Source: a virus (Duplodnaviria; Caudoviricetes). From it: 63,265 nt of DNA. The position numbers and the translations under genes are program-made. The stretch covers positions 1 through 63,265 of IMG/VR virus record IMGVR_UViG_3300009414_000002. One strand, given 5' to 3'. Positions 3,010-58,726 of the stretch are shown here, one piece after another. The notes under the pieces are model-generated. The model was not told the DNA's origin. It searched no databases and saw only the letters and a program-made list of their open reading frames with translations. Position 1 is the stretch's first letter, and every line of letters begins with the position of its first letter.

Positions 3010-3148
3010 AATGTTTTGGTTCGCATACCGTATCGATACGGACTGCGCGTGGGTCAGGACAGTACAGAACAGTACAGCACATTCAACAATGTTGACCGCA
3101 GGCCCGATTGCGCGGTAGTGTACGGTAGTCTTATGGTAGCGCTAGTCT

Positions 3149-16412: not shown

Positions 16413-16461
16413 TCGGTTCGCGAAAGTTCGATTGCCGAAAGGCACAACAAGGAGGGTGTAG

Positions 16462-17400
16462 ATGCGTTTGGTTGAAAATACCGCTGTATCAATTCGTCCA
16501 GATGAGGGCGTGATTCGAGCGGTTGAAGATTTGCTCACAAGTGAGTTGGAAAAAGGCGAATTTGCGTTTACGCATAGGCCGATCACAACAACTCTTGGAG
16601 AGCACGGCTCGAAATTCCTCATGGGCTACGCCGCTGTAGACGGAAGTGGCCCACCCCAAGGCAGATTCGAACTCCGCTCACCGACAATCAGAGAACAAGT
16701 TCAAGCAACTCAAAAGATCCGCGCTGCGTCGAAACAAGGCGCAACGCCCGGTCAGCAAGTTGCTTTGATTTTGAGTCGCTACCTCGTGAGTGCGGAAGGC
16801 ATCCCGATGGAGGGCCTTGCAGAGCGAAAAAAAGAAGCCATGTTGACCAAACTCCCCACTGGCGACATTGGCTACATGACCTTGTATCTCCAATACATTT
16901 TGGAAGATGGTGAACAGCGCCTTCCTGTTGTTTACGATTGCCTAGCGTGTGCTCTCAAAGTTGAAGCCCCAACTGTTGATCTGGGAAAACGCCAAGTCCA
17001 TTACTTTGACTACGATTCCGAGCATCAGCCATATGCCGTTTACAATCTACGTCACCCAGTCAAGCTAAGAGACCACGTAGCCAAAGCGGTCGTCCTTGGC
17101 CCCACACAGTTCAACATGACCATGCTGAATGCCACTGATAAACAGCTTCCGGTTGGTGTTGACTATCAGGCAAAAGTTCTTGCGAACGCGATCAAAGGAA
17201 CCGATGAAGGTCCTTTGAAGGGCACATTGAGCGAGTTGGAAGTTTTTCAGATGCACATGAAAGACTTGACCAATTGCTTCAATGCAGTGAATCAGTTGAA
17301 TTGTGAACCGGCAGAGTGGTTGAATCACGACTGCCCCAAGTGTGGAACGGAAAACAATCTCCAATTTGCGTGGACGGACCGCAATTTTTTTGGGGAATAG
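16462..17400 (+). CDS. Tail assembly chaperone (two-repeat, CxxC motifs)
   Basis: Between tube and tape measure; CLAC and CPKC; ends at slippery site with NFF. Confidence 0.7.
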   Translation: MRLVENTAVSIRPDEGVIRAVEDLLTSELEKGEFAFTHRPITTTLGEHGSKFLMGYAAVDGSGPPQGRFELRSPTIREQVQATQKIRAASKQGATPGQQVALILSRYLVSAEGIPMEGLAERKKEAMLTKLPTGDIGYMTLYLQYILEDGEQRLPVVYDCLACALKVEAPTVDLGKRQVHYFDYDSEHQPYAVYNLRHPVKLRDHVAKAVVLGPTQFNMTMLNATDKQLPVGVDYQAKVLANAIKGTDEGPLKGTLSELEVFQMHMKDLTNCFNAVNQLNCEPAEWLNHDCPKCGTENNLQFAWTDRNFFGE

Positions 17401-20919: not shown

Positions 20920-22487
20920 GCGCCACTCCATCTCTTATCCTTTCTGTGAACGGCAAACAATACACTCCAGACAAAGATATGTGGCTCTGGCAGCACATAA
21001 TCTTGATTGCCGTTGAGCACGTTGCCGATGGCGCAGACGAACTGACCATTGAGTTTGACGCTTGGAACGAAGAGGAGTCCAACTTCACCATTTTGGGCCA
21101 AAACATCTTTGCAGTTGGAAACCTCATTGAACTCCAGTCGGGGTATGAAGGAGACATAGACTTCCATCATGGCCGATATGAGATCGTGAGGCATGAGCCT
21201 GTTTTTGCTGACAATGGGCGTCCTTCTTTGACGGTGCGAGGTTATGATGCCATGCACAGGATGATCAGCCCCGGTTCCAAGCAGCCAAGAGCATTTATGA
21301 ACGTAGATTACGATCATGAGATAATTATCGAGTATTCCTTGTTGTATGGCTTGATGATCGAGTTTGAAGAAACCCCGAAAAACCCACAGTTTGAGATCAC
21401 CAGAAAAAAGGGCCACAAAATAAAGTCCAAGGACAAGAGAAAGGCAAAAGAAACGGTATCACCAAGTTGGATCAAAAGGGCGGGAACGACTGACTTGGCA
21501 GACTTGAAGATGCTGTGCATGAGGAACGGGTTTGCAAGTCCTCGAGTTCGATATGACCCAAAACTTGGTAAAGATGTTTTGCTGTGCAAGCGCCCAAATT
21601 CATTGAAAGACCAAACCATTGACACCGATGGGAAGGCTCATTTGTGGAAATGGAGGCATACGCTAGGAGCGGGTAATTTTGAAGCAACCGTAGCTAGTTC
21701 TGTGTTCGGTGCTGGACCCGGTGATTATCAAGGTGACTGCACACTAAGCTCTTTCTCTCCAAGATATTCCACGCATGGGCTTGCGCTTGCAGTTCGTTTG
21801 ATAGCGCCAACTCCTGACGGGGAATTCCGTGTTGTAGAAATGGAGTTGAAGCCCGGATCTAAAAAACCAACACTGGTGTTCGATGGGTCAAATGTGGAGG
21901 AAATTGCTGATTACGTCGAAGAAGAGTTCAAGGTTTTTGTTTCTGCTGTCAAAGGTGACGCGCCAGACTTCAAAAACCCGATGGCAGATTCAACAACCGT
22001 ACTTGTTGAAGTTCTTGGCGAGTATTCGAAGCAGACATCTGAAGCGGAAGAAGTGGCAGTGAAGCTCAACAAGCTCGGAAGCGACGAGATGAAGGAGTGG
22101 TGGGGCAGGGAAATCGCATTCCGCACATTGGCAACAAATACTGGCGACTTGGTTGAATACGCCACGAAGTGGCTTGAGATGCGTAGGAATTTGTGGCAAC
22201 GCGCAAACTTCGAATTCGGAAACATACAAACAACAAACAAGCTCGATTCATACGTGGTTCAGCCCGTTGTTGGTGTGAGTCCAGAATACGAAGGTTGGTG
22301 GATGATATGGGACGTGACTCATACTTGGACGCACGGCATTCACTCGGTTACTGGTGTTGCAAATAGGGTCATTTCCGAAAGACCCCCAATCCCCGGATTA
22401 ATGGATTCATCTAATGTCGCAGATAAACTAAGTGGTGAAAAGTGGGAAGCGCCCGGTACGGCAGGAACTATTGCAGGCGCGCAATGA
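20916..22487 (+). CDS. Baseplate hub (P2 gpD-like)
   Basis: AD.L.I.F, GNLIEL..GY, LTVRGYD, W.I.DVTH motifs. Confidence 0.75.
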   Translation: MSATPSLILSVNGKQYTPDKDMWLWQHIILIAVEHVADGADELTIEFDAWNEEESNFTILGQNIFAVGNLIELQSGYEGDIDFHHGRYEIVRHEPVFADNGRPSLTVRGYDAMHRMISPGSKQPRAFMNVDYDHEIIIEYSLLYGLMIEFEETPKNPQFEITRKKGHKIKSKDKRKAKETVSPSWIKRAGTTDLADLKMLCMRNGFASPRVRYDPKLGKDVLLCKRPNSLKDQTIDTDGKAHLWKWRHTLGAGNFEATVASSVFGAGPGDYQGDCTLSSFSPRYSTHGLALAVRLIAPTPDGEFRVVEMELKPGSKKPTLVFDGSNVEEIADYVEEEFKVFVSAVKGDAPDFKNPMADSTTVLVEVLGEYSKQTSEAEEVAVKLNKLGSDEMKEWWGREIAFRTLATNTGDLVEYATKWLEMRRNLWQRANFEFGNIQTTNKLDSYVVQPVVGVSPEYEGWWMIWDVTHTWTHGIHSVTGVANRVISERPPIPGLMDSSNVADKLSGEKWEAPGTAGTIAGAQ

Positions 22488-22499
22488 TGGTGAGTTTGA

Positions 22500-23282
22500 A
22501 TGAAAGACGGTTTTGACCTTGGAGATGTCATTGAGCATCTCGGAATTTGCATCGAAGTGAATGATGACGGGACTTGTGATTTGCAAGTTCCAACTTACGC
22601 TGGCGATCAGATAATAGATAGCATCAAGGGCGTTTTCCCTCTCAACGGACCATTTTCAACTCCTCGCATTGGCGAGCGCGTAGTTGTCGAAGAACGGCAC
22701 CCAAGTCACAACCCAAGTGACGCACTTCGTTGGGTTGGAACGGATTTGGAAACCCCAAAGCTCCTCGACGCAGATCGCGTTGTCATTACTTCAAAAAACA
22801 AAACGATGGCTATCATCTTCGATGATGATGCGCTTGGAGACGAATCCAACCACCCACACTTGTACATTGGCGCACTAAGCAACACGCAACCAGCAGTCCT
22901 TGGTCACACTTTGATAGCCAAGCTGGACGAACTTCACGAATTGCTGAAACCGTGGAACAACTCCCTTGGGTTGCAAATGTCCGTGGAAGGAGTGGCTCTG
23001 ATGTCGGCTCTTTCGGCTTGGGTCACGCTTGTCGCCGCTGCGTCCGCTGGCGTTGCGGCAAACCCCGGCACACCGGCTTCATTGCTCGCGCTGACAACGG
23101 CAATAACAAACTACACCACGCAATTGACTACCAGAGGCACCGACGCGATAGCGTTGGAAACCGCTATGGATGCTTTGAGAGAAACGTACAAGGCATTCAA
23201 TTCTTATTTTGTGAAAATAGCCGGTGCGGAGCCAACGGTAATTGAAGAGGCAGATGGGTATGATTTTTCAGGTCACAGTTAG
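22500..23282 (+). CDS. Baseplate spike (gpV/gp45-like)
   Basis: N-terminal OB-like P.IGERVVV; QPAVLG motif. Confidence 0.6.
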   Translation: MKDGFDLGDVIEHLGICIEVNDDGTCDLQVPTYAGDQIIDSIKGVFPLNGPFSTPRIGERVVVEERHPSHNPSDALRWVGTDLETPKLLDADRVVITSKNKTMAIIFDDDALGDESNHPHLYIGALSNTQPAVLGHTLIAKLDELHELLKPWNNSLGLQMSVEGVALMSALSAWVTLVAAASAGVAANPGTPASLLALTTAITNYTTQLTTRGTDAIALETAMDALRETYKAFNSYFVKIAGAEPTVIEEADGYDFSGHS

Positions 23283-23392
23283 GCGCAAGCAATCGCTTGA
23301 TGCTGGCGGTTTGGGTTGTTAGGTATGGGTTGGTATTCGCAATTGGTCAAAATGCCGTTGAATCGAAGCATAACGGTCTGCTTGGGTTTGCG

Positions 23393-23422
23393 TTGACACG
23401 TTGCGGATCGTTGGATTAGAGT
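23393..23422 (+). promoter_or_regulatory. Sigma70-like promoter
   Basis: TTGACA-N18-TAGAGT in the 270-bp intergenic gap. Confidence 0.5.
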
Positions 23423-23428
23423 GTGAAC

Positions 23429-23518
23429 GCAACACCTCCTTGTTGTCGCTACTTTTGTGATAACTACCGTTGCTGTGCCGGTTGGGCGTTTCGCCAGCGT
23501 CTAGCCGGCGCTTTTATT
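23429..23518 (+). ncRNA. Candidate ~90-nt small RNA with an anti-SD loop
   Basis: Lies between the promoter and terminator; hairpin CAACA-CCTCCT-TGTTG. Confidence 0.4.
23475..23518 (+). terminator. Intrinsic terminator
   Basis: GTGCCGGTTGGGCG...CGTCTAGCCGGCGC stem followed by TTTTATT. Confidence 0.6.
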
Positions 23519-23552
23519 CACTCATCCAATTTAACATGGTAGTGTACTCACA

Positions 23553-23945
23553 ATGAGTGAAGTGAAGGGAAAAGTGGGTCTAAAGTGGCCCCCGAAAATC
23601 AACGATACCGGAGGGTTGGATCTTACAAATCCGACCGGTGGTGGCTGGGAATCTTTGAAGCAACTAATTGCCATTGCTCATTTGCCGAGGATGAGTTCCG
23701 ACCCATACGTGGACTCGTTTGGCATTGGATCTCCAATGGAAGGGTTTGACACCGTTCAAGGAACAGTCCCGAACAAGCTAAAGAAGTACATCTTCCAGTT
23801 TTACTCGAGGATGGAATTTATGAAACGGGCAAAGTTGATCAGCGGACCAAACATCACTTTGACCGACCCCGCAACCGGGAAGCTGGAAATCAAAGAATTG
23901 GTTTTGAATCTCCAATCCAGTGACACCGAGGAGATTGTAGCATGA
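23553..23945 (+). CDS. Baseplate wedge gp25/gpW-like
   Basis: 130 aa, GL.WP motif, precedes baseplate J. Confidence 0.55.
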   Translation: MSEVKGKVGLKWPPKINDTGGLDLTNPTGGGWESLKQLIAIAHLPRMSSDPYVDSFGIGSPMEGFDTVQGTVPNKLKKYIFQFYSRMEFMKRAKLISGPNITLTDPATGKLEIKELVLNLQSSDTEEIVA

Positions 23946-26281
23946 CTGCGCCTTACTTTTCGGTAGTCACCAGAGATGGAATTTACAAAATGCTTCTTGA
24001 ACTAAAGAAGCAACTTCTGCCGGAACATACCGAAGACAATCCTGAAGATCCGCTCAATGCGTTGCTTTCTGTTTTTTCATATGAAGGCCAGCGTCAGTCA
24101 GCAATGTTGGACATGGCTGCATTGGAAATGGACTGGCTGAACTGTCGAAGAAGAGCATCATTGATAGCAATGGGCTATTTGACTGGTTTTTCATTGGATG
24201 GAAACAAGCCAGCCAAGATCAAGATCCTTGCAGATGTCACAACGGAATCTCCTTCTGGTTCCATATTGGTTGAAAAAAACGCGGCTTTTGGAGCGCCCAA
24301 CGGTGTCCAATTTGAAGCGCTTGCTCAAGTAGCTATGCCTGCTCAGCTTCTAAACATACCTTATGGCGCAACGCCATCATTGACGCTAAAGTCTCTTTCC
24401 AGTGTTTTTTCTGCAAACGACGGTTTGCCCGCATCCATGCCGATCAGCGTTGCGAATGATGCGCTGTACTACTGCCATGAAGCACTTGTTCCAGAGGGAT
24501 TCAATGTGACGATTGCGGCGCTGACATCTGCCGCAAAGTATAGCGTTGAGTATTACGAAGGCCATTCAAAACAAGGCCACCCAAGCTCAGTCACCAACAA
24601 CGGCGATGGAACGCTCACATTCAAAGCTGATTCATTCTTCGGGTGGTCACAAGATACTTCATGGAACTACTCGACCGCGCTTTCAATTTACGTTGGAGGT
24701 CCGCGCTACAATGCAAACGATGCGGTTGGTCTGGTTGTTCGAATCAAGAGCTTGGAAACTGGCACTTATGAAGACGTGTCCGTCGTTTCCAGCACGGGAC
24801 CATCGTTTTCGACCGCCACTGTTCTGGGACAAACATCAGTATCTACAGATGTAACAAAATATATTGTCTCGTGTGAGTGGAGGCCCTTCAAGTGGTATTG
24901 GGACAAGGAAGTGACTGGATCGGCAGCCGACATAACGGCGAAGATGCGGTGGGTTATGCCTTTCGAAGAGCAACAGTTGGTCACGGCAACAGATACTTAC
25001 TTGAACTTGAATGAAACACAGCAAGGCGGGCGCGAGTGGAAATCAACGTCAGTCAACGGCGTCACTGGGTACTGGATGCGTATCCGCATGACAGCCACTA
25101 CCGGCGCAGCGCCAATGAATTTTTCGGATCTTTCATTCGATGCAGATGATACGGCCTACACAACGCTTGCCGGTGGAACGCTCGCATACACGGTTCCAGT
25201 GGACTGCATTCAAGGGAAAACAATCACAGAGAGCTTTGGAATTTCAACCGGCACGGCAAACCAGATTTTTTCGCTTGGCAATGTTCCTGTCAACGATTCC
25301 CCGTTGTCTATGGAAGTCGGAAGCGTGGTGTATTCGAAAGTGGAAACTCTGTTTGGCTCAGGCCCAAACGGAACGAACTTTTTGCTGATTGAAAATCCAG
25401 ACGGGACATTTTCGGTCAAGTTTGGAGATGGCGTCGATGGAAAAATCCCCCCAACGTCAGACGAAATAATCATGACTTATCGCATTGGAGCGGAGTCGTC
25501 TGGAAATGTTGGAGCTCTGACTGTTTCAACAAACAAATCGGGTCAACCGTTCCTTGGAAACATAAGGAACCCTTCTCCGGGTAGGTTTTGGGAAATCAAA
25601 CAAGCAGATACTTCACTCGGGACCGAAGGAATGGAGGTTGCGAGAAGGGCTGGGTCGGCATTCGTTCGGTCCGTCAGTGGCGTAAACACCCCCACGACGC
25701 TCGATCTACACCTTACAAAGATGGAACTGGCCGATGGCTCCAGCCCTATAGACAGGGCAATCGTTTATGAAAACCAAGGCGGGTACAATCAAGCTACCGT
25801 CCGCGTTGTTGGGAACGGAGGGGCCTTGCTTACTGCTCCTGAACTTTCAGAGGTCGGAACTGCGGTAAATGGAACAACGCAAAACTTCGCCAGATACGGT
25901 GGCATTGGTCCAATAAACAGCTTGTTCACATTCATAAACTACACGCCGGTCGTTGTGACAATTACTGCAACCGTTACGGTGCCAAACGGCAAGTCCGGCG
26001 GCGTTGCTGGAAATGTAAAAGCAGCGCTTTCTTCATATCTCAATCCAACGTCACTCAATGAAGACGGAACGTTTGCCCACAATCCGGGTGGGACCATTTA
26101 CGACTCAAAAATAAAAATGACTGTTGCTGCAGCGGTAGACAACTTGGTGGACTTGACACTCACAATGTCCACACCGGCTTCATCTCCAGCGGCAGGTAGC
26201 AATTTGGTTTTGGCGACCGGGGAACTTCCAGACCCAAACAGTGCAGCGAACGCGGTTATTTCAGTTGCGGAGTTGGCTTAA
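23942..26281 (+). CDS. Baseplate J-like wedge protein with insertion
   Basis: G.S.G.ANQ.F.L, V.FGDG..GKIP, YR.G....GNV motifs. Confidence 0.85.
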   Translation: MTAPYFSVVTRDGIYKMLLELKKQLLPEHTEDNPEDPLNALLSVFSYEGQRQSAMLDMAALEMDWLNCRRRASLIAMGYLTGFSLDGNKPAKIKILADVTTESPSGSILVEKNAAFGAPNGVQFEALAQVAMPAQLLNIPYGATPSLTLKSLSSVFSANDGLPASMPISVANDALYYCHEALVPEGFNVTIAALTSAAKYSVEYYEGHSKQGHPSSVTNNGDGTLTFKADSFFGWSQDTSWNYSTALSIYVGGPRYNANDAVGLVVRIKSLETGTYEDVSVVSSTGPSFSTATVLGQTSVSTDVTKYIVSCEWRPFKWYWDKEVTGSAADITAKMRWVMPFEEQQLVTATDTYLNLNETQQGGREWKSTSVNGVTGYWMRIRMTATTGAAPMNFSDLSFDADDTAYTTLAGGTLAYTVPVDCIQGKTITESFGISTGTANQIFSLGNVPVNDSPLSMEVGSVVYSKVETLFGSGPNGTNFLLIENPDGTFSVKFGDGVDGKIPPTSDEIIMTYRIGAESSGNVGALTVSTNKSGQPFLGNIRNPSPGRFWEIKQADTSLGTEGMEVARRAGSAFVRSVSGVNTPTTLDLHLTKMELADGSSPIDRAIVYENQGGYNQATVRVVGNGGALLTAPELSEVGTAVNGTTQNFARYGGIGPINSLFTFINYTPVVVTITATVTVPNGKSGGVAGNVKAALSSYLNPTSLNEDGTFAHNPGGTIYDSKIKMTVAAAVDNLVDLTLTMSTPASSPAAGSNLVLATGELPDPNSAANAVISVAELA

Positions 26282-37546: not shown

Positions 37547-37558
37547 TTTTAACACCTC

Positions 37559-37897
37559 CTATCGTTGGCGGTTTTGGTGTAAACCCCAAATGTATTCAGT
37601 CTCCAAATCATTCACCCAACCAAGTTCCTTCAGCCGATCTCTGACATCTTCAGGCCAACGAGATTTGTTTTTGAAAAGGACCATGAACAACCATTTGACT
37701 TGCGGTTCCGTCACACGACAGTGCGTCAAACCAAGTCCGGTTTTTTCAATCATCTCTTCTACAAACTCCTTCGCTTTGTCGGACAACCTGCTTTCTGGAT
37801 TCTCGATAACATAGACAAGTGCTTTTAGTGCCACTATGGACCTGTCGTATTGTGTTACTTCTGAAATAACATACTGCATTGGGTCAAACACGTTCAC
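37559..37897 (-). CDS. Hypothetical protein
   Basis: ORF coupled to neighbours. Confidence 0.55.
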   Translation of the reverse strand: MNVFDPMQYVISEVTQYDRSIVALKALVYVIENPESRLSDKAKEFVEEMIEKTGLGLTHCRVTEPQVKWLFMVLFKNKSRWPEDVRDRLKELGWVNDLETEYIWGLHQNRQR

Positions 37898-39395: not shown

Positions 39396-39601
39396 TGACC
39401 TTCCTCCTTGTTGAAAATGCCCAGCTTCACCCGTTTGTTCGCCACGACCTTGCTTGGAAAAATCAAAAACAAGCTGAGTCGCTGCTGGGCGGGCTACTAT
39501 TTGGAGCCCCTGTAGCGTGAGTACCGATTCATTGCGCCGGCTACAGGGACACACGGTGTGCTCATGTTCAATGTCAGGCGCAATCTCCAACCCATTCCAT
39601 T

Positions 39602-44728: not shown

Positions 44729-44803
44729 GATTCTCCTCCTTGTTGCAAAACGTACGCCTTAAAAAACAAACACGAGTCCACGCTCATTCGCGGACGAGTT
44801 TGA

Positions 44804-45610: not shown

Positions 45611-45630
45611 GTCAACACCTCCTAGTGCCG

Positions 45631-49575: not shown

Positions 49576-50775
49576 TCAATCCAATCCGCGACCACGAAAA
49601 ATCTCGTGGTTCAGCCGTTCTTGCAAATCAGTCCACATTTGGCGAATGCCGCCAATCAGCGTGTCAACCGAACCCGATACCCGGTCTTGCCGTGACGAAA
49701 TCACCGATGCTTGCTTTCCGATGTTCTCTAGTTGCTCCAATATGGTGGACCCACCATCCAAAAATTCAGCGCGACTCTCTTTCGGGTTTGGAAGCTGTGA
49801 AACCAGTTCCTTCGCGGCGTCATACAACTCCTGCACTTCGTTCAAGACCGGATTGGCGATTTTGCTGACTACACGGACGATGGTTGGCTTGTCTTCTGGT
49901 TTTCCCCAAAGGAGGTCTGCCAAAATTTCGAACGATTCAACTTCCAGTTTGCCGTACCCGGACAAGACCGAATGCGCCGCCAGAATTGGTACGGTTTGTC
50001 TCCAACGCCTATCGCTGTACTCCAAACCTTCGTTCTTCAGCGCCTCGCTAATTTCAATCAGCGCGTCTTCAAATTCATCGTTGTCGTTTTCAAGGAACGC
50101 GGCGACTTTCGACCGAAGCTCTTCGAGTGATTTCGATGAAAGCGTGCATTGTGGATTGGGTGCTGGTCCGAACACGATTCGTTTTCTGTCAGCCGGATCT
50201 CCAGCCCACTTCACGTTGAGTCGAACCATGAACCTGTCGTAAATGGCATTCAACGTGTCGTCTTCTGGGAGTTCGTTCGATGCAGTGATCATCGTTTCCA
50301 GCGGAACGTCCTCGACAACCAACCCGTTGTGAAACTTGCGTTCGTTGACCACACATAGGAGCGTATTCAACAATGCGTGATTGCACTTCCACACTTCATC
50401 CAAAAGAACGACCTCGCACGTTGGAAGGTACCCTTCCGTTTTGCGATAAAACTCGTCGTTCATCAGCTTGGTGACGCTGTACGGACCAAGCACTTCATCT
50501 GGCAGCGTTGTTTTGGATACGAGGTACTCGAAATACGTTTTCCCGAGTGCCTTCGCGATTGCCCTCGCAAGCATTGACTTTGCAGTGCCCGGTGGGCCGA
50601 GGATGAAAACGTGCTCTTTTGCCAGAAATGCCGCCATTATTGCGACAATTTCACTGCGCCGGTCCACGAAGTGCTTGTCGAACTCATTTATGAATTCGAT
50701 CACTTCAACTTGGCAATCTTCTGGTTGTTCGCTTTGCTCGGTTCCGTCGATACTGACAATTGTTGCGTCCGTCAT
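49576..50775 (-). CDS. MoxR-family AAA+ ATPase (RavA-like)
   Basis: GPPGTAKS, LDEVWK, LN.LL, ASNELP, YDRF, SDRRW. Confidence 0.9.
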   Translation of the reverse strand: MTDATIVSIDGTEQSEQPEDCQVEVIEFINEFDKHFVDRRSEIVAIMAAFLAKEHVFILGPPGTAKSMLARAIAKALGKTYFEYLVSKTTLPDEVLGPYSVTKLMNDEFYRKTEGYLPTCEVVLLDEVWKCNHALLNTLLCVVNERKFHNGLVVEDVPLETMITASNELPEDDTLNAIYDRFMVRLNVKWAGDPADRKRIVFGPAPNPQCTLSSKSLEELRSKVAAFLENDNDEFEDALIEISEALKNEGLEYSDRRWRQTVPILAAHSVLSGYGKLEVESFEILADLLWGKPEDKPTIVRVVSKIANPVLNEVQELYDAAKELVSQLPNPKESRAEFLDGGSTILEQLENIGKQASVISSRQDRVSGSVDTLIGGIRQMWTDLQERLNHEIFRGRGLD

Positions 50776-50810
50776 GGACTCCTCCTTGTTGCACTTCAAA
50801 TTCCGATGGG

Positions 50811-51116
50811 TCAATCAACTCGCCAGCCCTCATCGAAAAGTTTGTCTGCAGTAACCGGTCTCGACAACGCTGAAACCGCTTCATGCGAGTCCAGCGTTCC
50901 GTAAATGTTTGCTCCTTCCAAAATGCCTAGCTTGAAGCCGCCACCTTGCGTTTTCATGAAATTGGAAACCAAAACAGCGGTGACTGGGAGTTCCAGACCA
51001 CCTTCCGAAACTTTCTTGAGTGGGCAACACGCGATCCCGTTGAATTTGAACTTCCAACGCAATGGATTTTTCATCCACCCAACGTGCCTGTCTTTGTTCG
51101 AAGACAAAATGAACAT
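50811..51116 (-). CDS. Hypothetical protein
   Basis: GGAGG RBS before ATG 51116. Confidence 0.5.
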   Translation of the reverse strand: MFILSSNKDRHVGWMKNPLRWKFKFNGIACCPLKKVSEGGLELPVTAVLVSNFMKTQGGGFKLGILEGANIYGTLDSHEAVSALSRPVTADKLFDEGWRVD

Positions 51117-51223
51117 TGAACCTCCAAAAACGGGATGGGACTGCTCTGAAGCGGCAAAAGTATTAAAAATAACACAACAAAACAGCCCCACCCCTACCGA
51201 CAACAGCGCGAACAACGCTGTAT

Positions 51224-52234
51224 CTAAAACGGTGCCGACGCGAGGTTTCGCTGAACAACATCTATCGGTTGTTCATTCTTCAAAACCTTGCCCAACTCAT
51301 CCATGACACGCTGCGTAGCGTTTACCATGTTTTTTTGTTCGACACCAAGAACGGTTGCCCACATTTTGGACTGATTCATCAGTTCCTCTGCGCGGGTAAT
51401 CCTTTTCTGTAGTGTGGAATCACGCGGGGCATCTACCCACTCTTCGACCTCCTCTTTGAGCTTTCGCAACTTTGTCGCGATGTCCTCTTCTGCCGACTCG
51501 GCAACCCATTCGCGCATCGCTTTTGTGTCAACGATTGGAATGAGGTTTATTCGACCACCGAGTGCGGCAATTGCGCTTCGGAGTGCAATCAAACCGGGAC
51601 CACCGCCCATCCTGACGAACCGTTGACCCCGCTGGACCGGAATCGACCCGAGCGCGATAAGCTCATTCTTGATGAATGTTCCAACCGTTTGAGTCGCGAA
51701 CGTGTCTTCTGCGGTCCTGCGGTCAATCAGTTCCTTGGCGTGTGAAAACACAAAACGTACGCGCTCCAAAAACGACACTTCGTCACCTGTGGACGTTGTT
51801 TCGTTCGAAGTTGGGTCCATGTTGATGCATGCTCTCCCGTTGATGATGGAAACCAAAAGTCTGCCAACCCTGCTATGGGCGTCATTTTCCCGGTCGTACT
51901 CATGCAACGAGTACATCGTGTAAAGCGATGTTTTGTCCGCAACTTCGAGCCGAAGACGCTGCGATTTCGGAAGTGCGTTGACTGCCTCGCTCACACTTCG
52001 TTCTGCCCACGTCAGCTTGCTTGGAGCTTTCGGTATGGCAGATTCGAAATGAGGACAATGGGTGGTCAACTCTTCTTCAAAACGAGCGGCGGTTGGCTCA
52101 ATACCGCGAAGGTTGTACCCAACGAGGTGACCGAGGATCACTAAGTCCTTAACGTCTCCGATGAGCGCGTCAAGTTGACTTTGCGTATCGACAACCGCTG
52201 GGTGTTCACTCTTGCTGGCATTGGACTCTGGCAT
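51224..52234 (-). CDS. Hypothetical protein (possibly DUF6744-like), first gene of the AAA/VWA operon
   Basis: AAGGAGGT RBS before ATG 52234; LG.LV.Y N-terminus, helical C-terminus. Confidence 0.6.
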   Translation of the reverse strand: MPESNASKSEHPAVVDTQSQLDALIGDVKDLVILGHLVGYNLRGIEPTAARFEEELTTHCPHFESAIPKAPSKLTWAERSVSEAVNALPKSQRLRLEVADKTSLYTMYSLHEYDRENDAHSRVGRLLVSIINGRACINMDPTSNETTSTGDEVSFLERVRFVFSHAKELIDRRTAEDTFATQTVGTFIKNELIALGSIPVQRGQRFVRMGGGPGLIALRSAIAALGGRINLIPIVDTKAMREWVAESAEEDIATKLRKLKEEVEEWVDAPRDSTLQKRITRAEELMNQSKMWATVLGVEQKNMVNATQRVMDELGKVLKNEQPIDVVQRNLASAPF

Positions 52235-53353
52235 GAAACACCTCCTTGTTTTCACTGCCCTTGTTCTTTGTCGCCATGCCGGGATTGCCGACACCCCGAT
52301 ATGTTCGCACGGGTGGATAGATAATGCAACCATAAAACAACGTTTATGTGAAAAAAAACAAAATCGTCGTGACGCAAAGCAATTGCATGAGGGTCGCGTT
52401 TTTGTCCATTGGTGCGACCGGGTGGGCGCGTTGCACCCGACGCCGTTGCTTGGACAGTGCTTTAAAGACCGGTTTTTCCTCATGGAATCGCGGTTGTAGA
52501 CTGGGTGGGGTAGGGTTTTGAAAACGCCGGGTTTCTGGTAAAAAGACTCCAGAGGGTCTCCAGCAAGGAATTAGCTGTTTTGTGCCGTTCATTCCCAACC
52601 AAATTCCTACTATTCCTTCTCCATGAGATGGGTTTGTACGACGTTCGATGTGCTTCGGTCGCAGATAATGGATGTTGCTGTGTGCGGCACTCAGGTCATT
52701 TTGGCAATCATGTTAGCGGGGATGAGGAAACTTTTTGGATCTGAAAGCATGAATTCTTTATTCAGCAATGGTTGTTAAAGACTCACACGTAGTGGTCTGA
52801 TCCGTTTAAGCCTCAACGAAGCTTTAACTACGGAGCTACGCTTTGAGGTCTTTTCCAAAGTTTCGAATTCAAGTCCAGTTTCGCGAGTCAGCCTACTCAA
52901 TTGCTAAACTTAACGGCTGCTGAAAGAAATGAATGAAATCTGGGCCGCCGTCCTCTTATTTGTGGCTCGACCTCTTTCTTCGCTGAGCGCTGTTTGGTGA
53001 AGCTTGCTCGAGTGTAATTCGAAAAGGCTGGTTGGAGTCCCAATCTTGCAACACCTGCTGTAAATCAATTCTGTACTGTACTGTTCTGTTCCGCCCGCGG
53101 TCGCTATCGGTGGGGTATCTATACCGTATCGAGGATGAATCTTGGCACGCAGGCGAGATTGGCACGGAGGCGAGACAATTTTACAAATCGGAGGTATAAC
53201 TGGACGACATCATTCGCTGCAGTTTGGCGGTTGGTGGGTCAACGGCGTCTGCGGTACCCCATTCCCCGAAAGCCGTGGTCGTCGTTGATTTTTTGGATCT
53301 TGACTTGGCTGAGTCCAACATGGTACGCTACGAAACGTAGCGTACGAAATTGG

Positions 53354-55660: not shown

Positions 55661-55682
55661 GGGACACCTCCTGTTGTCGTTG

Positions 55683-57764: not shown

Positions 57765-57768
57765 TGTC

Positions 57769-57852
57769 GGACATCCGTTCACCGGTGATCAAATGTTCAC
57801 CACTGAACAACTGTTCACCGGTGATCAAATGTTCAACACTGAACAACCGTTC
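57769..57852. repeat. Tandem array with 18-bp period (36-bp unit x2), palindromic operator-like boxes
   Basis: GTTCACCGGTGATCAAATGTTCA(C/A)CACTGAACAAC repeated. Confidence 0.85.
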
Positions 57853-57986
57853 CGTGCTAATTATTTTCGCATTTGGCACAATTCTTGAACCATGCAATCC
57901 CCATGCCATAACTCGGTTTCGAAAAATGGCGTAAGTGTCCGATCCCGGCGATTGTCATCGAGACAATCGCACGGGGCCGGAACGTG

Positions 57987-58014
57987 AAAAACCCCGGGGT
58001 GTCAACCCCGGGGT
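57987..58014 (-). terminator. Intrinsic terminator
   Basis: ACCCCGGGG-TTGACA-CCCCGGGGT-TTTT on the minus strand. Confidence 0.55.
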
Positions 58015-58022
58015 GTTGTGGT

Positions 58023-58085
58023 TTACACAAATGCGGAAATTGCGATAACCGCACAAATCGAAATTGCGTATATGGTCAATGCCAT
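58023..58085 (-). CDS. Possible 20-aa hydrophobic peptide MALTIYAISICAVIAISAFV
   Basis: Short ORF directly before the terminator, within the AG-free island. Confidence 0.3.
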   Translation of the reverse strand: MALTIYAISICAVIAISAFV

Positions 58086-58210
58086 TGTTTTACCCGTTGT
58101 TCATTGTTGTTGCCGGTGCCGGATCCGGGCAACCCCGGAAACCCACGGTTATTACCCGTGGCGATTATCCCGGGGTGTGAACCCCGGGACAATCCGCACA
58201 ATCCCGACCG

Positions 58211-58726
58211 TTATGATTTCCGGCCCACGTTACGCGTGCATGAAACCATTCGAACCGTTGCGTGCAACGTGCCGGATTTTTTGTCGCCGGTACGTTCAAT
58301 CGCGTACGTGCGATCGGCCGTGTCGGACGCGGTCAAAACCCGTGCCGTGACGGCAAATTCGCGGATAACGGAATCGATCATGGATACGATTTTATCGATG
58401 TCCAAATCCCGCGCATCATATCCGGCGTTGGCCATTGCCGTCGTCGCATAATCCACGTTCACACCGTTTTCGCCGAACGCCAACGTTGTGATAATTTCCC
58501 GTTTGCCCGGTCGCGCCATTCGCGCCGCACGTTCCGCGGCACGTTGGGATTTCAATGCAATCCCGGTTGCGGCCGCCAATGGTGCCAACGCGGCACGTAA
58601 CACGTCCAATTGTTCGCCCGTCATATCACCGATCGTTGCGGGATCCAACGTGGACAAATCCACGGGGGCCGCGGTATCGGTCGTTTCAACAACGGGGGAA
58701 TTTTTGCGGTTTTTCGTTTTTGACAT
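58211..58726 (-). CDS. Hypothetical early protein encoded without AG/CT dinucleotides
   Basis: 171-aa ORF with natural composition; SD-like GGA elements only. Confidence 0.6.
   Translation of the reverse strand: MSKTKNRKNSPVVETTDTAAPVDLSTLDPATIGDMTGEQLDVLRAALAPLAAATGIALKSQRAAERAARMARPGKREIITTLAFGENGVNVDYATTAMANAGYDARDLDIDKIVSMIDSVIREFAVTARVLTASDTADRTYAIERTGDKKSGTLHATVRMVSCTRNVGRKS

Follow-up and report, generated by a model that had tools for sequence, protein, structure and literature searches.

A candidate anti-Shine-Dalgarno RNA gene inside the baseplate operon of an uncultured marine phage

The widest gap among the structural genes of the phage genome studied here (the window, a stretch of 63,265 nt analysed in full) contains a promoter-like site, a CCTCCT element and a terminator-like stem, and it raises the question whether a small RNA is encoded at this place and, if so, with which messages it would pair. 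An earlier note on this DNA proposed a trans-acting RNA, complementary to ribosome-binding sites of the phage, that represses early and replication genes or host mRNAs. In this analysis I examine the signals in the gap, the fold of the predicted RNA, its complementarity to the translation-initiation regions of the phage, and the explanations that compete with a regulatory RNA. The coordinates of all features are collected in Table 1.

The gap and its surroundings

The first and last 123 nt of the 63,265-bp contig are identical, which indicates a complete phage genome. Between about 59,850 and 30,610, across the ends of the contig, the plus strand carries the virion genes, including those for the small and large terminase and for Mu-F-like, CHAP-domain, tape-measure and baseplate wedge proteins. 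The minus strand from about 57,000 down to 30,607 carries genes for replication and metabolism, with a primase-helicase, Sak4-like and SSB-like proteins, a PD-(D/E)XK nuclease, MoxR and VWA proteins, as well as QueD, a TGT-like protein and a protein with a ParB-N domain. Most proteins of the phage have no match in Pfam or PHROGs.

Searches for relatives gave distant matches or none. Blastn of positions 22500-24500 against phages gave no match, and an exact 21-mer of the element had 0 matches in IMG/VR. The 779-aa baseplate protein had no match in IMG/VR, found just a fragment of itself among 5.8 billion proteins, and in a tblastn search against phages matched two records and no others, both from Caulobacter phage Cr30 (30% over 13% of its length); a full HMMER search returned 1285 homologues, the best of them other than itself at 40% identity. 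Homologue scans of P0002, P0003, P0154, P0152, P0158 and P0016, run singly, gave nothing or 27% matches without synteny, and the large terminase gave 24-27% matches only. The stretch is present in 15 DNA runs labelled marine metagenome, and none of the runs that contain it is an RNA run. Contigs from four of these DNA runs show a single difference in 21,500-25,500 (at 23,793) and none in the gap, so the sampled population is clonal. Assembled contigs from two independent runs end at 23421/23435-23455, inside the promoter and the seed, although such breaks alone prove nothing.

The note had placed its candidate in the one large gap of the tail operon and, according to a rough gene list, no other gap in the structural module of the plus strand is as wide. 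There is no tRNA in it and no plus-strand open reading frame with a Shine-Dalgarno (SD) sequence, and a cmscan of 23200-23650 against the Rfam families (E up to 10) yielded three unrelated, chance-level matches only. The only frame between promoter and terminator is a 39-aa GTG open reading frame that lacks an SD and runs through the terminator.

Table 1. Features of the gap and predicted targets of the candidate RNA (positions in the window)
Feature	Position	Strand	Remarks
Non-coding gap, 270 nt	23283..23552	+	between 260-aa gene (22500-23282) and 130-aa gene (23553-23945), baseplate operon
12-nt inverted repeat TTGCGTTGACAC / GTGTGAACGCAA	23388..23432	.	brackets promoter; 92% complementary
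Sigma-70-like promoter TTGACA-N18-TAGAGT	23393..23422	+	10/12 consensus match; -35 23393-23398, -10 23417-23422
Predicted small RNA, about 88-92 nt	23429..23518	+	stable strand-specific fold
Extended seed region	23429..23458	+	complementary to phage ribosome-binding sites
Unpaired anti-Shine-Dalgarno core ACCUCCUU	23434..23441	+	unpaired probability >0.9 with three assumed 5' ends
Intrinsic terminator	23475..23518	+	stem 23475-23511, 16 pairs (9 G-C, 5 G-U), then TTTTATT
Best predicted target: leader and SD, gene at ATG 52234 (336 aa, DUF6744-like)	52237..52264	-	23/28 match, 14 contiguous
Predicted target: SD region, 255-aa gene (GTG 55660)	55664..55679	-	16 nt complementary, one gap; net -9.6 kcal/mol
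Predicted target: SD, MoxR-type ATPase gene (ATG 50775)	50781..50791	-	11 nt; net -7.2 kcal/mol
Predicted target: SD, Sak4-like annealing protein gene (GTG 45610)	45613..45623	-	11 nt; net -5.5 kcal/mol
Predicted target: SD, SSB-like / DUF669 gene (ATG 44728)	44735..44745	-	11 nt
Predicted target: SD, 151-aa gene (ATG 39395)	39403..39413	-	11 nt
Predicted target: SD, 77-aa gene (ATG 37546)	37551..37560	-	10 nt
Predicted target: SD, 312-aa gene (start 16,462)	16444..16455	+	12 nt; between tube-region and tape-measure genes

Promoter, terminator and predicted fold

The promoter described in the earlier note is found at its place, and it is the sole site on the plus strand that agrees with the consensus at 10 of 12 positions. 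The score measures consensus match only, and this consensus may not apply in the host of the phage. Both strands of the genome together hold 28 promoter-like sites, three of them with 10/12; from three such sites in 2 x 63,265 positions, about 0.006 are expected in one 270-nt gap on one strand. Promoter-like sites in general are not enriched over shuffled sequence in the four regions that cover the genome (observed/shuffled 4/12.8, 6/10.7, 8/12.7 and 10/10.4), so that it is the position of the site, and no genome-wide signal, that supports the promoter call. With the usual spacing, transcription is predicted to start near 23427-23431, which would let the RNA begin a few bases 5' of the unpaired ACCUCCUU.

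The GC stem with a T-tract, which the note took for the end of the transcript, holds up as well: it is the strongest of 89 terminator-like matches in the genome, the runner-up having 10 pairs. Taken alone it folds with -27.6 kcal/mol, it lies 53 nt 3' of the -10 hexamer, and because of the five G-U pairs in its stem it works on the plus strand only. I consider it probable that a discrete RNA ends at this terminator.

The predicted RNA folds with -40.8 kcal/mol (z -5.87), and none of 200 shuffled sequences is as stable. The opposite strand of the same interval reaches -24.2 kcal/mol (z -1.07), a stability equalled by 25 of 200 shuffles; G-U pairs account for this asymmetry, the terminator stem having five of them and helix 2 two. 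Equally stable folds occur in 37 of 12,636 sliding 90-nt windows of the genome, and these windows fall into a few clusters. Of all 90-nt folds in the genome, those at 57765-58225 are the most stable, on both strands (about -53 kcal/mol). They adjoin tandem and palindromic repeats of 18 nt (57765-57845) and a GC hairpin of 10 bp (57991-58014), and this region may be an origin or a regulatory region.

According to the note, a 5' hairpin formed by CAACA and UGUUG exposes CCUCCU in its loop. The exposure is borne out by the fold prediction, in which the core is unpaired with each of the assumed 5' ends, but the hairpin is weak (-2.7 kcal/mol) and the ensemble prefers helix 1 (23429-23433/23469-23473) and helix 2 (23442-23449/23457-23464). 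In the ensemble fold ACCUCCUU lies in an internal loop, and it is exposed in the earlier-drawn hairpin too. With its promoter, a seed at the 5' end, a U-rich loop, a U-tailed terminator and structure on one strand, the locus has the anatomy of an sRNA gene.

The inverted repeat that brackets the promoter forms a helix when the entire gap is folded. Its role may be that of an operator or, in read-through RNA, that of a helix masking the 5' part of the seed. As the TTGCGTTGACAC / GTGTGAACGCAA pairing would engage the first bases of the seed in such RNA, it suggests that the seed would be free only in RNA initiated at the promoter.

Pairing with ribosome-binding sites of the phage

The element contains CACCUCCUU, the conserved core of the 16S rRNA 3' end, and any strong SD will consequently pair with it. 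The question is therefore whether its complementarity to the phage sites goes beyond this generic part. All eight complementarities given in the earlier note are exact, including the 14-mer at 52237-52250 and the match with one gap at 55664-55679. In order to compare them with generic pairing, duplexes of the 22-nt seed with 89 translation-initiation regions were set against those of 300 controls, in which CACCTCCTT was fixed and the 13 flank letters were shuffled. The ten best duplexes of the seed average -26.5 kcal/mol, against -20.8 kcal/mol for the controls (sd 1.1, best -25.0), and 0 of the 300 controls reach this value; match lengths no better than generic SD complementarity, which the note had named as a ground for refutation, are thus not what is observed. 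The seed does not stand out when regions with a duplex of -18 kcal/mol or lower are simply counted, which is a cruder measure: it has 17 of them, and 13% of the flank-shuffled controls reach 17.

A comparison of the flanks points in the same direction as the ten best duplexes. Over 15 flank positions, the 29 GGAGG sites with a start codon and an open frame are identical to the element at 155 of 435 positions (35.6%; binomial P 5e-7 against 25%), and the 45 other GGAGG sites at 174 of 675 (25.8%; P 0.33). The signal is due to about ten sites that have CAACAAGGAGG, AGGAGGTGTT(G), or both, and both halves of the motif occur at one real start site only, that of 52234. By these computed comparisons, the complementarity of the flanks exceeds that of a generic anti-SD. 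A further idea, that strong ribosome-binding sites of this phage are generally displayed in a hairpin loop, was dropped, since a stem of at least 4 bp was found at 2 of the 29 start-associated sites, against 1 of the 45 others with the element itself excluded.

The gene at ATG 52234, whose leader is the best predicted target, is the first of a long (22-kb) minus-strand replication operon. A repeat finder pairs 23,431-23,458 with 52,237-52,264, and no local match of the gap in the genome, apart from the gap itself, scores as high as this leader (31); the site at 16,444 follows with 28, against a background of 27. Other windows of the genome score 27-28. A score of 34 was obtained with one of 500 mononucleotide shuffles, so that support for an extension past the 14-mer is only moderate. 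A similarity of about 65 nt to the same leader, hinted at by MAFFT, was given up, as local alignment supports 28 nt. The duplex at 52234 has -36.9 kcal/mol, and -12.9 kcal/mol net of crude opening costs for both RNAs. In this crude calculation a net energy of -10 kcal/mol or lower is reached in one of the 89 initiation regions, because opening helices 1 and 2 costs about 12 kcal/mol; short interactions are understated, since the maximal duplex is taken and not the best sub-duplex.

By an Atlas structure search, the protein encoded at 52,234 is similar to phage proteins of the DUF6744 type (TM 0.69 by query, 0.72 by matched row), with a feature score of 0.93 and Pfam below threshold. Its gene heads a module (49576-52234) that continues with a 101-aa gene, a bpMoxR ATPase and a VWA protein. 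The about 900 nt above it (52235-53135) contain just two short, doubtful open reading frames and are likely a control region. This large non-coding region also holds one copy (53072-53096) of a 25-nt inverted pair made of ACAGTACAG-like repeats, 84% alike, the other copy of which lies in the head module (3057-3081).

In a start list that maximises the SD on both strands, an SD of at least 6 nt precedes 12 of 41 starts on the minus strand and 5 of 46 on the plus strand. With the stronger SDs on the minus strand, an anti-SD RNA would hit the replication module preferentially, in line with what the note had supposed. The exception among the predicted targets is the 312-aa gene of the tail module at 16,462, which the note had called a tail chaperone and which is one by position only.

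Competing readings and comparison with known systems

These observations are consistent with the following mechanism. The gap would hold an autonomous gene whose product is a non-coding RNA of about 90 nt, transcribed from a dedicated sigma-70-type promoter up to a strong intrinsic terminator. At the strongest ribosome-binding sites of the phage, the flanks would extend a generic 9-nt anti-SD to 11-16 bases (16 being the match with one gap), and the most likely action would be base pairing across the SD that blocks 30S subunits. The first gene of the replication operon would be repressed, the other genes with strong SDs (the GTG 55660 gene, MoxR, Sak4-like, SSB-like and one tail gene) would be repressed more weakly, and the late genes with weak SDs would be spared. 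Synthesis of the RNA, its pairing in the cell and the repression of translation by this pairing are three steps that I infer from the sequence, and the full model, a trans-acting anti-SD RNA that represses phage genes, is put forward tentatively, as a reading to which I give somewhat less than an even chance. The trans-acting repressor of the earlier note is thus upheld in part: complementarity beyond the generic and the anatomy of an sRNA gene speak for it, and against it stand an inverted copy of a ribosome-binding site, which fits the same data, and the unexceptional count of duplexes at -18 kcal/mol. In addition, an RNA with a host-type promoter would be expected to be synthesised early or constitutively, and such timing does not sit well with a late shut-off of early genes.

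Such an inverted copy deserves to be weighed in full. The element is the exact reverse complement of the consensus ribosome-binding site of the phage, and its minus-strand reading ACAACAAGGAGGTGTTG is the fullest version of it, so that an inverted copy of a leader, perhaps that of 52,234, would give the same complementarity without any function. The 28-nt similarity could then be the trace of an inverted duplication, the CCTCCT element a non-functional copy or relic, the promoter match a chance event among sites that are not enriched over shuffles, and the terminator, which is strong irrespective of the sequence upstream, an operon-internal one that lowers transcription of the baseplate and fibre genes. 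Read in the AGGAGG direction, the 16-mer of the element is shared by 45 IMG/VR contigs that are unrelated to the phage (0 tblastn matches from the proteins of the window). In 28 of these 45, by a count on the flanks, it is followed within 0-5 nt by an ATG, and in other phages it is therefore an ordinary ribosome-binding site. However, a relic needs three coincidences within 130 nt, namely the best promoter match of the plus strand, the element right at the 5' end of the predicted transcript and a core that flanking helices with G-U pairs, on which they rely, keep unpaired. These helices exist in plus-strand RNA only, and a relic is not expected to be the most complete version of a motif whose two halves meet at a single real start (52234). 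The element is also without a usable start codon on the minus strand. I regard the relic as rather unlikely, though well worth keeping in mind. The two readings share a history in one respect, since an inverted duplication of a target leader behind a promoter would be a simple route by which a trans-antisense RNA could originate. A small protein translated from this SD on the minus strand (a 38-aa open reading frame, 23435-23319) is highly improbable. There is a perfect AAGGAGGTG ahead of an open frame, but of the only two start codons after GGAGG, one (GTG) overlaps the SD and the other (TTG) follows at 2 nt, which agrees with the remark in the earlier note that no properly spaced start follows. 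Nor is there a promoter-like site for the minus strand at this place, the neighbouring genes are all on the plus strand, and the minus-strand RNA has no special structure (z -1.07).

Alternatively, the transcript could matter for the genes downstream and not for distant ones. A promoter followed after about 90 nt by a strong terminator, with late genes directly downstream, is the arrangement of a regulated leader like lambda PR'-tR', with a constitutive promoter and a terminator passed by modified polymerase only; the short RNA would then be a by-product like lambda 6S RNA, for which Q-dependent read-through is described (10.1101/2024.10.31.621285). The downstream 130-aa gene lacks an SD. Its ATG lies hidden in the stem of a perfect 9-bp inverted repeat, TTCACTCAT / ATGAGTGAA (23,517-23,525 with 23,553-23,561), of which the left-arm region can pair instead with 23411-23430, reaching upstream of the predicted transcription start (14 Watson-Crick and 2 G-U pairs of 20). 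The segment 23510-23561 may act as a switch of translation or form a stem for processing around the RNA, and with the ATG buried and an alternative pairing at hand, some cis control of the baseplate genes may coexist with the RNA. Masking of the SD of the downstream gene by the anti-SD in cis was also considered and dropped, as this gene has no SD and the core is unpaired in the longer fold. Against a leader, no Q-like or other antiterminator was found in Pfam (11 + 50 proteins) or PHROGs (31 scanned), which is weak evidence because the proteins of the phage are very divergent; the site is found midway through the tail module instead of at its start, and a leader does not account for anti-SD flanks that match ribosome-binding sites of the phage. 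The same RNA might also act mainly on host messages, as a mimic of the 16S 3' end that titrates strong SDs and adds to host shut-off. The unpaired core of 8-9 nt is a generic anti-SD, late genes of the phage mostly have weak SDs, and lambda LPR1 (PreS), which is about 88 nt long and ends at an operon terminator, acts mainly on host mRNAs (10.1101/2024.10.31.621285). However, the flanks are tuned to sites of the phage, and generic titration needs no such tuning. Both the leader and the host-directed RNA seem improbable to me, to about the same degree.

If the repressor reading is right, an uncultured marine myovirus-like phage aims an anti-SD RNA, nested in its structural operon, at its own replication operon. 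The difference in SD strength between early and late genes would then be tied to a regulator, and promoter, 5'-end anti-SD and terminator would make up a signature that can be searched for in other phage genomes. Trans-acting RNA control of a phage's own developmental programme is known from few temperate phages only (P1/P7 c4 and P4 CI), and I found no phage-encoded anti-SD sRNA against the phage's own genes in the open-access literature. Lambdoid morons are inserts with their own promoter and terminator between two late genes and carry a protein gene as cargo. The candidate gene could be called an 'RNA moron' inside the baseplate operon, having the flanking promoter and terminator of a moron; its cargo would be an RNA and not a protein-coding gene.

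The cia-dependent csRNAs of streptococci are thought to block translation initiation regions and resemble the candidate in size (roughly 90-150 nt) and in an unpaired anti-SD between stem-loops (PMC3091779). The same source reports an anti-start-codon in csRNAs, CAU in 53 of 61 (PMC3091779), whereas the candidate has no CAU 5' of its core. It further differs from them in being phage-encoded, in flanks that match the phage's own sites and in having no Rfam match. The c4 RNA of P1/P7 is a trans-acting phage RNA with exposed sequences that pair around a ribosome-binding site of a phage operon, by which translation is blocked (PMC12197685); the candidate is likewise phage-encoded, and its exposed sequence is by prediction complementary to ribosome-binding sites of phage operons. 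However, c4 is described there as an immunity factor of temperate phages that controls an antirepressor (PMC12197685), and the candidate gene lies in a structural operon of a phage among whose proteins family searches detect no integrase or repressor family; nor does it match any Rfam family at E up to 10 beyond chance level.

Two lambda RNAs resemble it in the way they are encoded. One source describes LPR1 as an RNA with a GC stem and U tail at an operon terminator, made in the lytic cycle, that activates a host gene, and 6S RNA as a short promoter-to-terminator transcript in the late operon (10.1101/2024.10.31.621285). The consulted section describes no anti-SD seed for LPR1 (10.1101/2024.10.31.621285), 6S RNA has no known function in trans, and neither has any sequence relation to the candidate. 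LPR1 sets a precedent for a genuine phage sRNA that is about 88 nt long and has its end at an operon terminator. In T4, many early messages are inactivated at their SDs or initiation regions by RegB and RegA, and late ones are spared (PMC3014915). RegB is a GGAG-cutting nuclease and RegA a translational repressor, according to the same paper (PMC3014915); both are proteins, whereas the candidate would be an RNA that acts by pairing. The candidate belongs to none of the csRNA, c4 and RegB/RegA families, as it has no Rfam match, no anti-start-codon and shows no sign of a temperate life style. The outcome proposed for it would, by analogy, be the same as that of RegB and RegA. In the widest version of this idea, which I think quite unlikely, the RNA imitates the 16S rRNA 3' end, is adjusted to the phage's own extended ribosome-binding-site consensus and serves a lytic marine phage to switch translation in general. 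It would silence the replication genes with strong SDs, and perhaps host messages, while virion genes with weak SDs are still translated, and would then be an RNA counterpart of T4 RegB/RegA.
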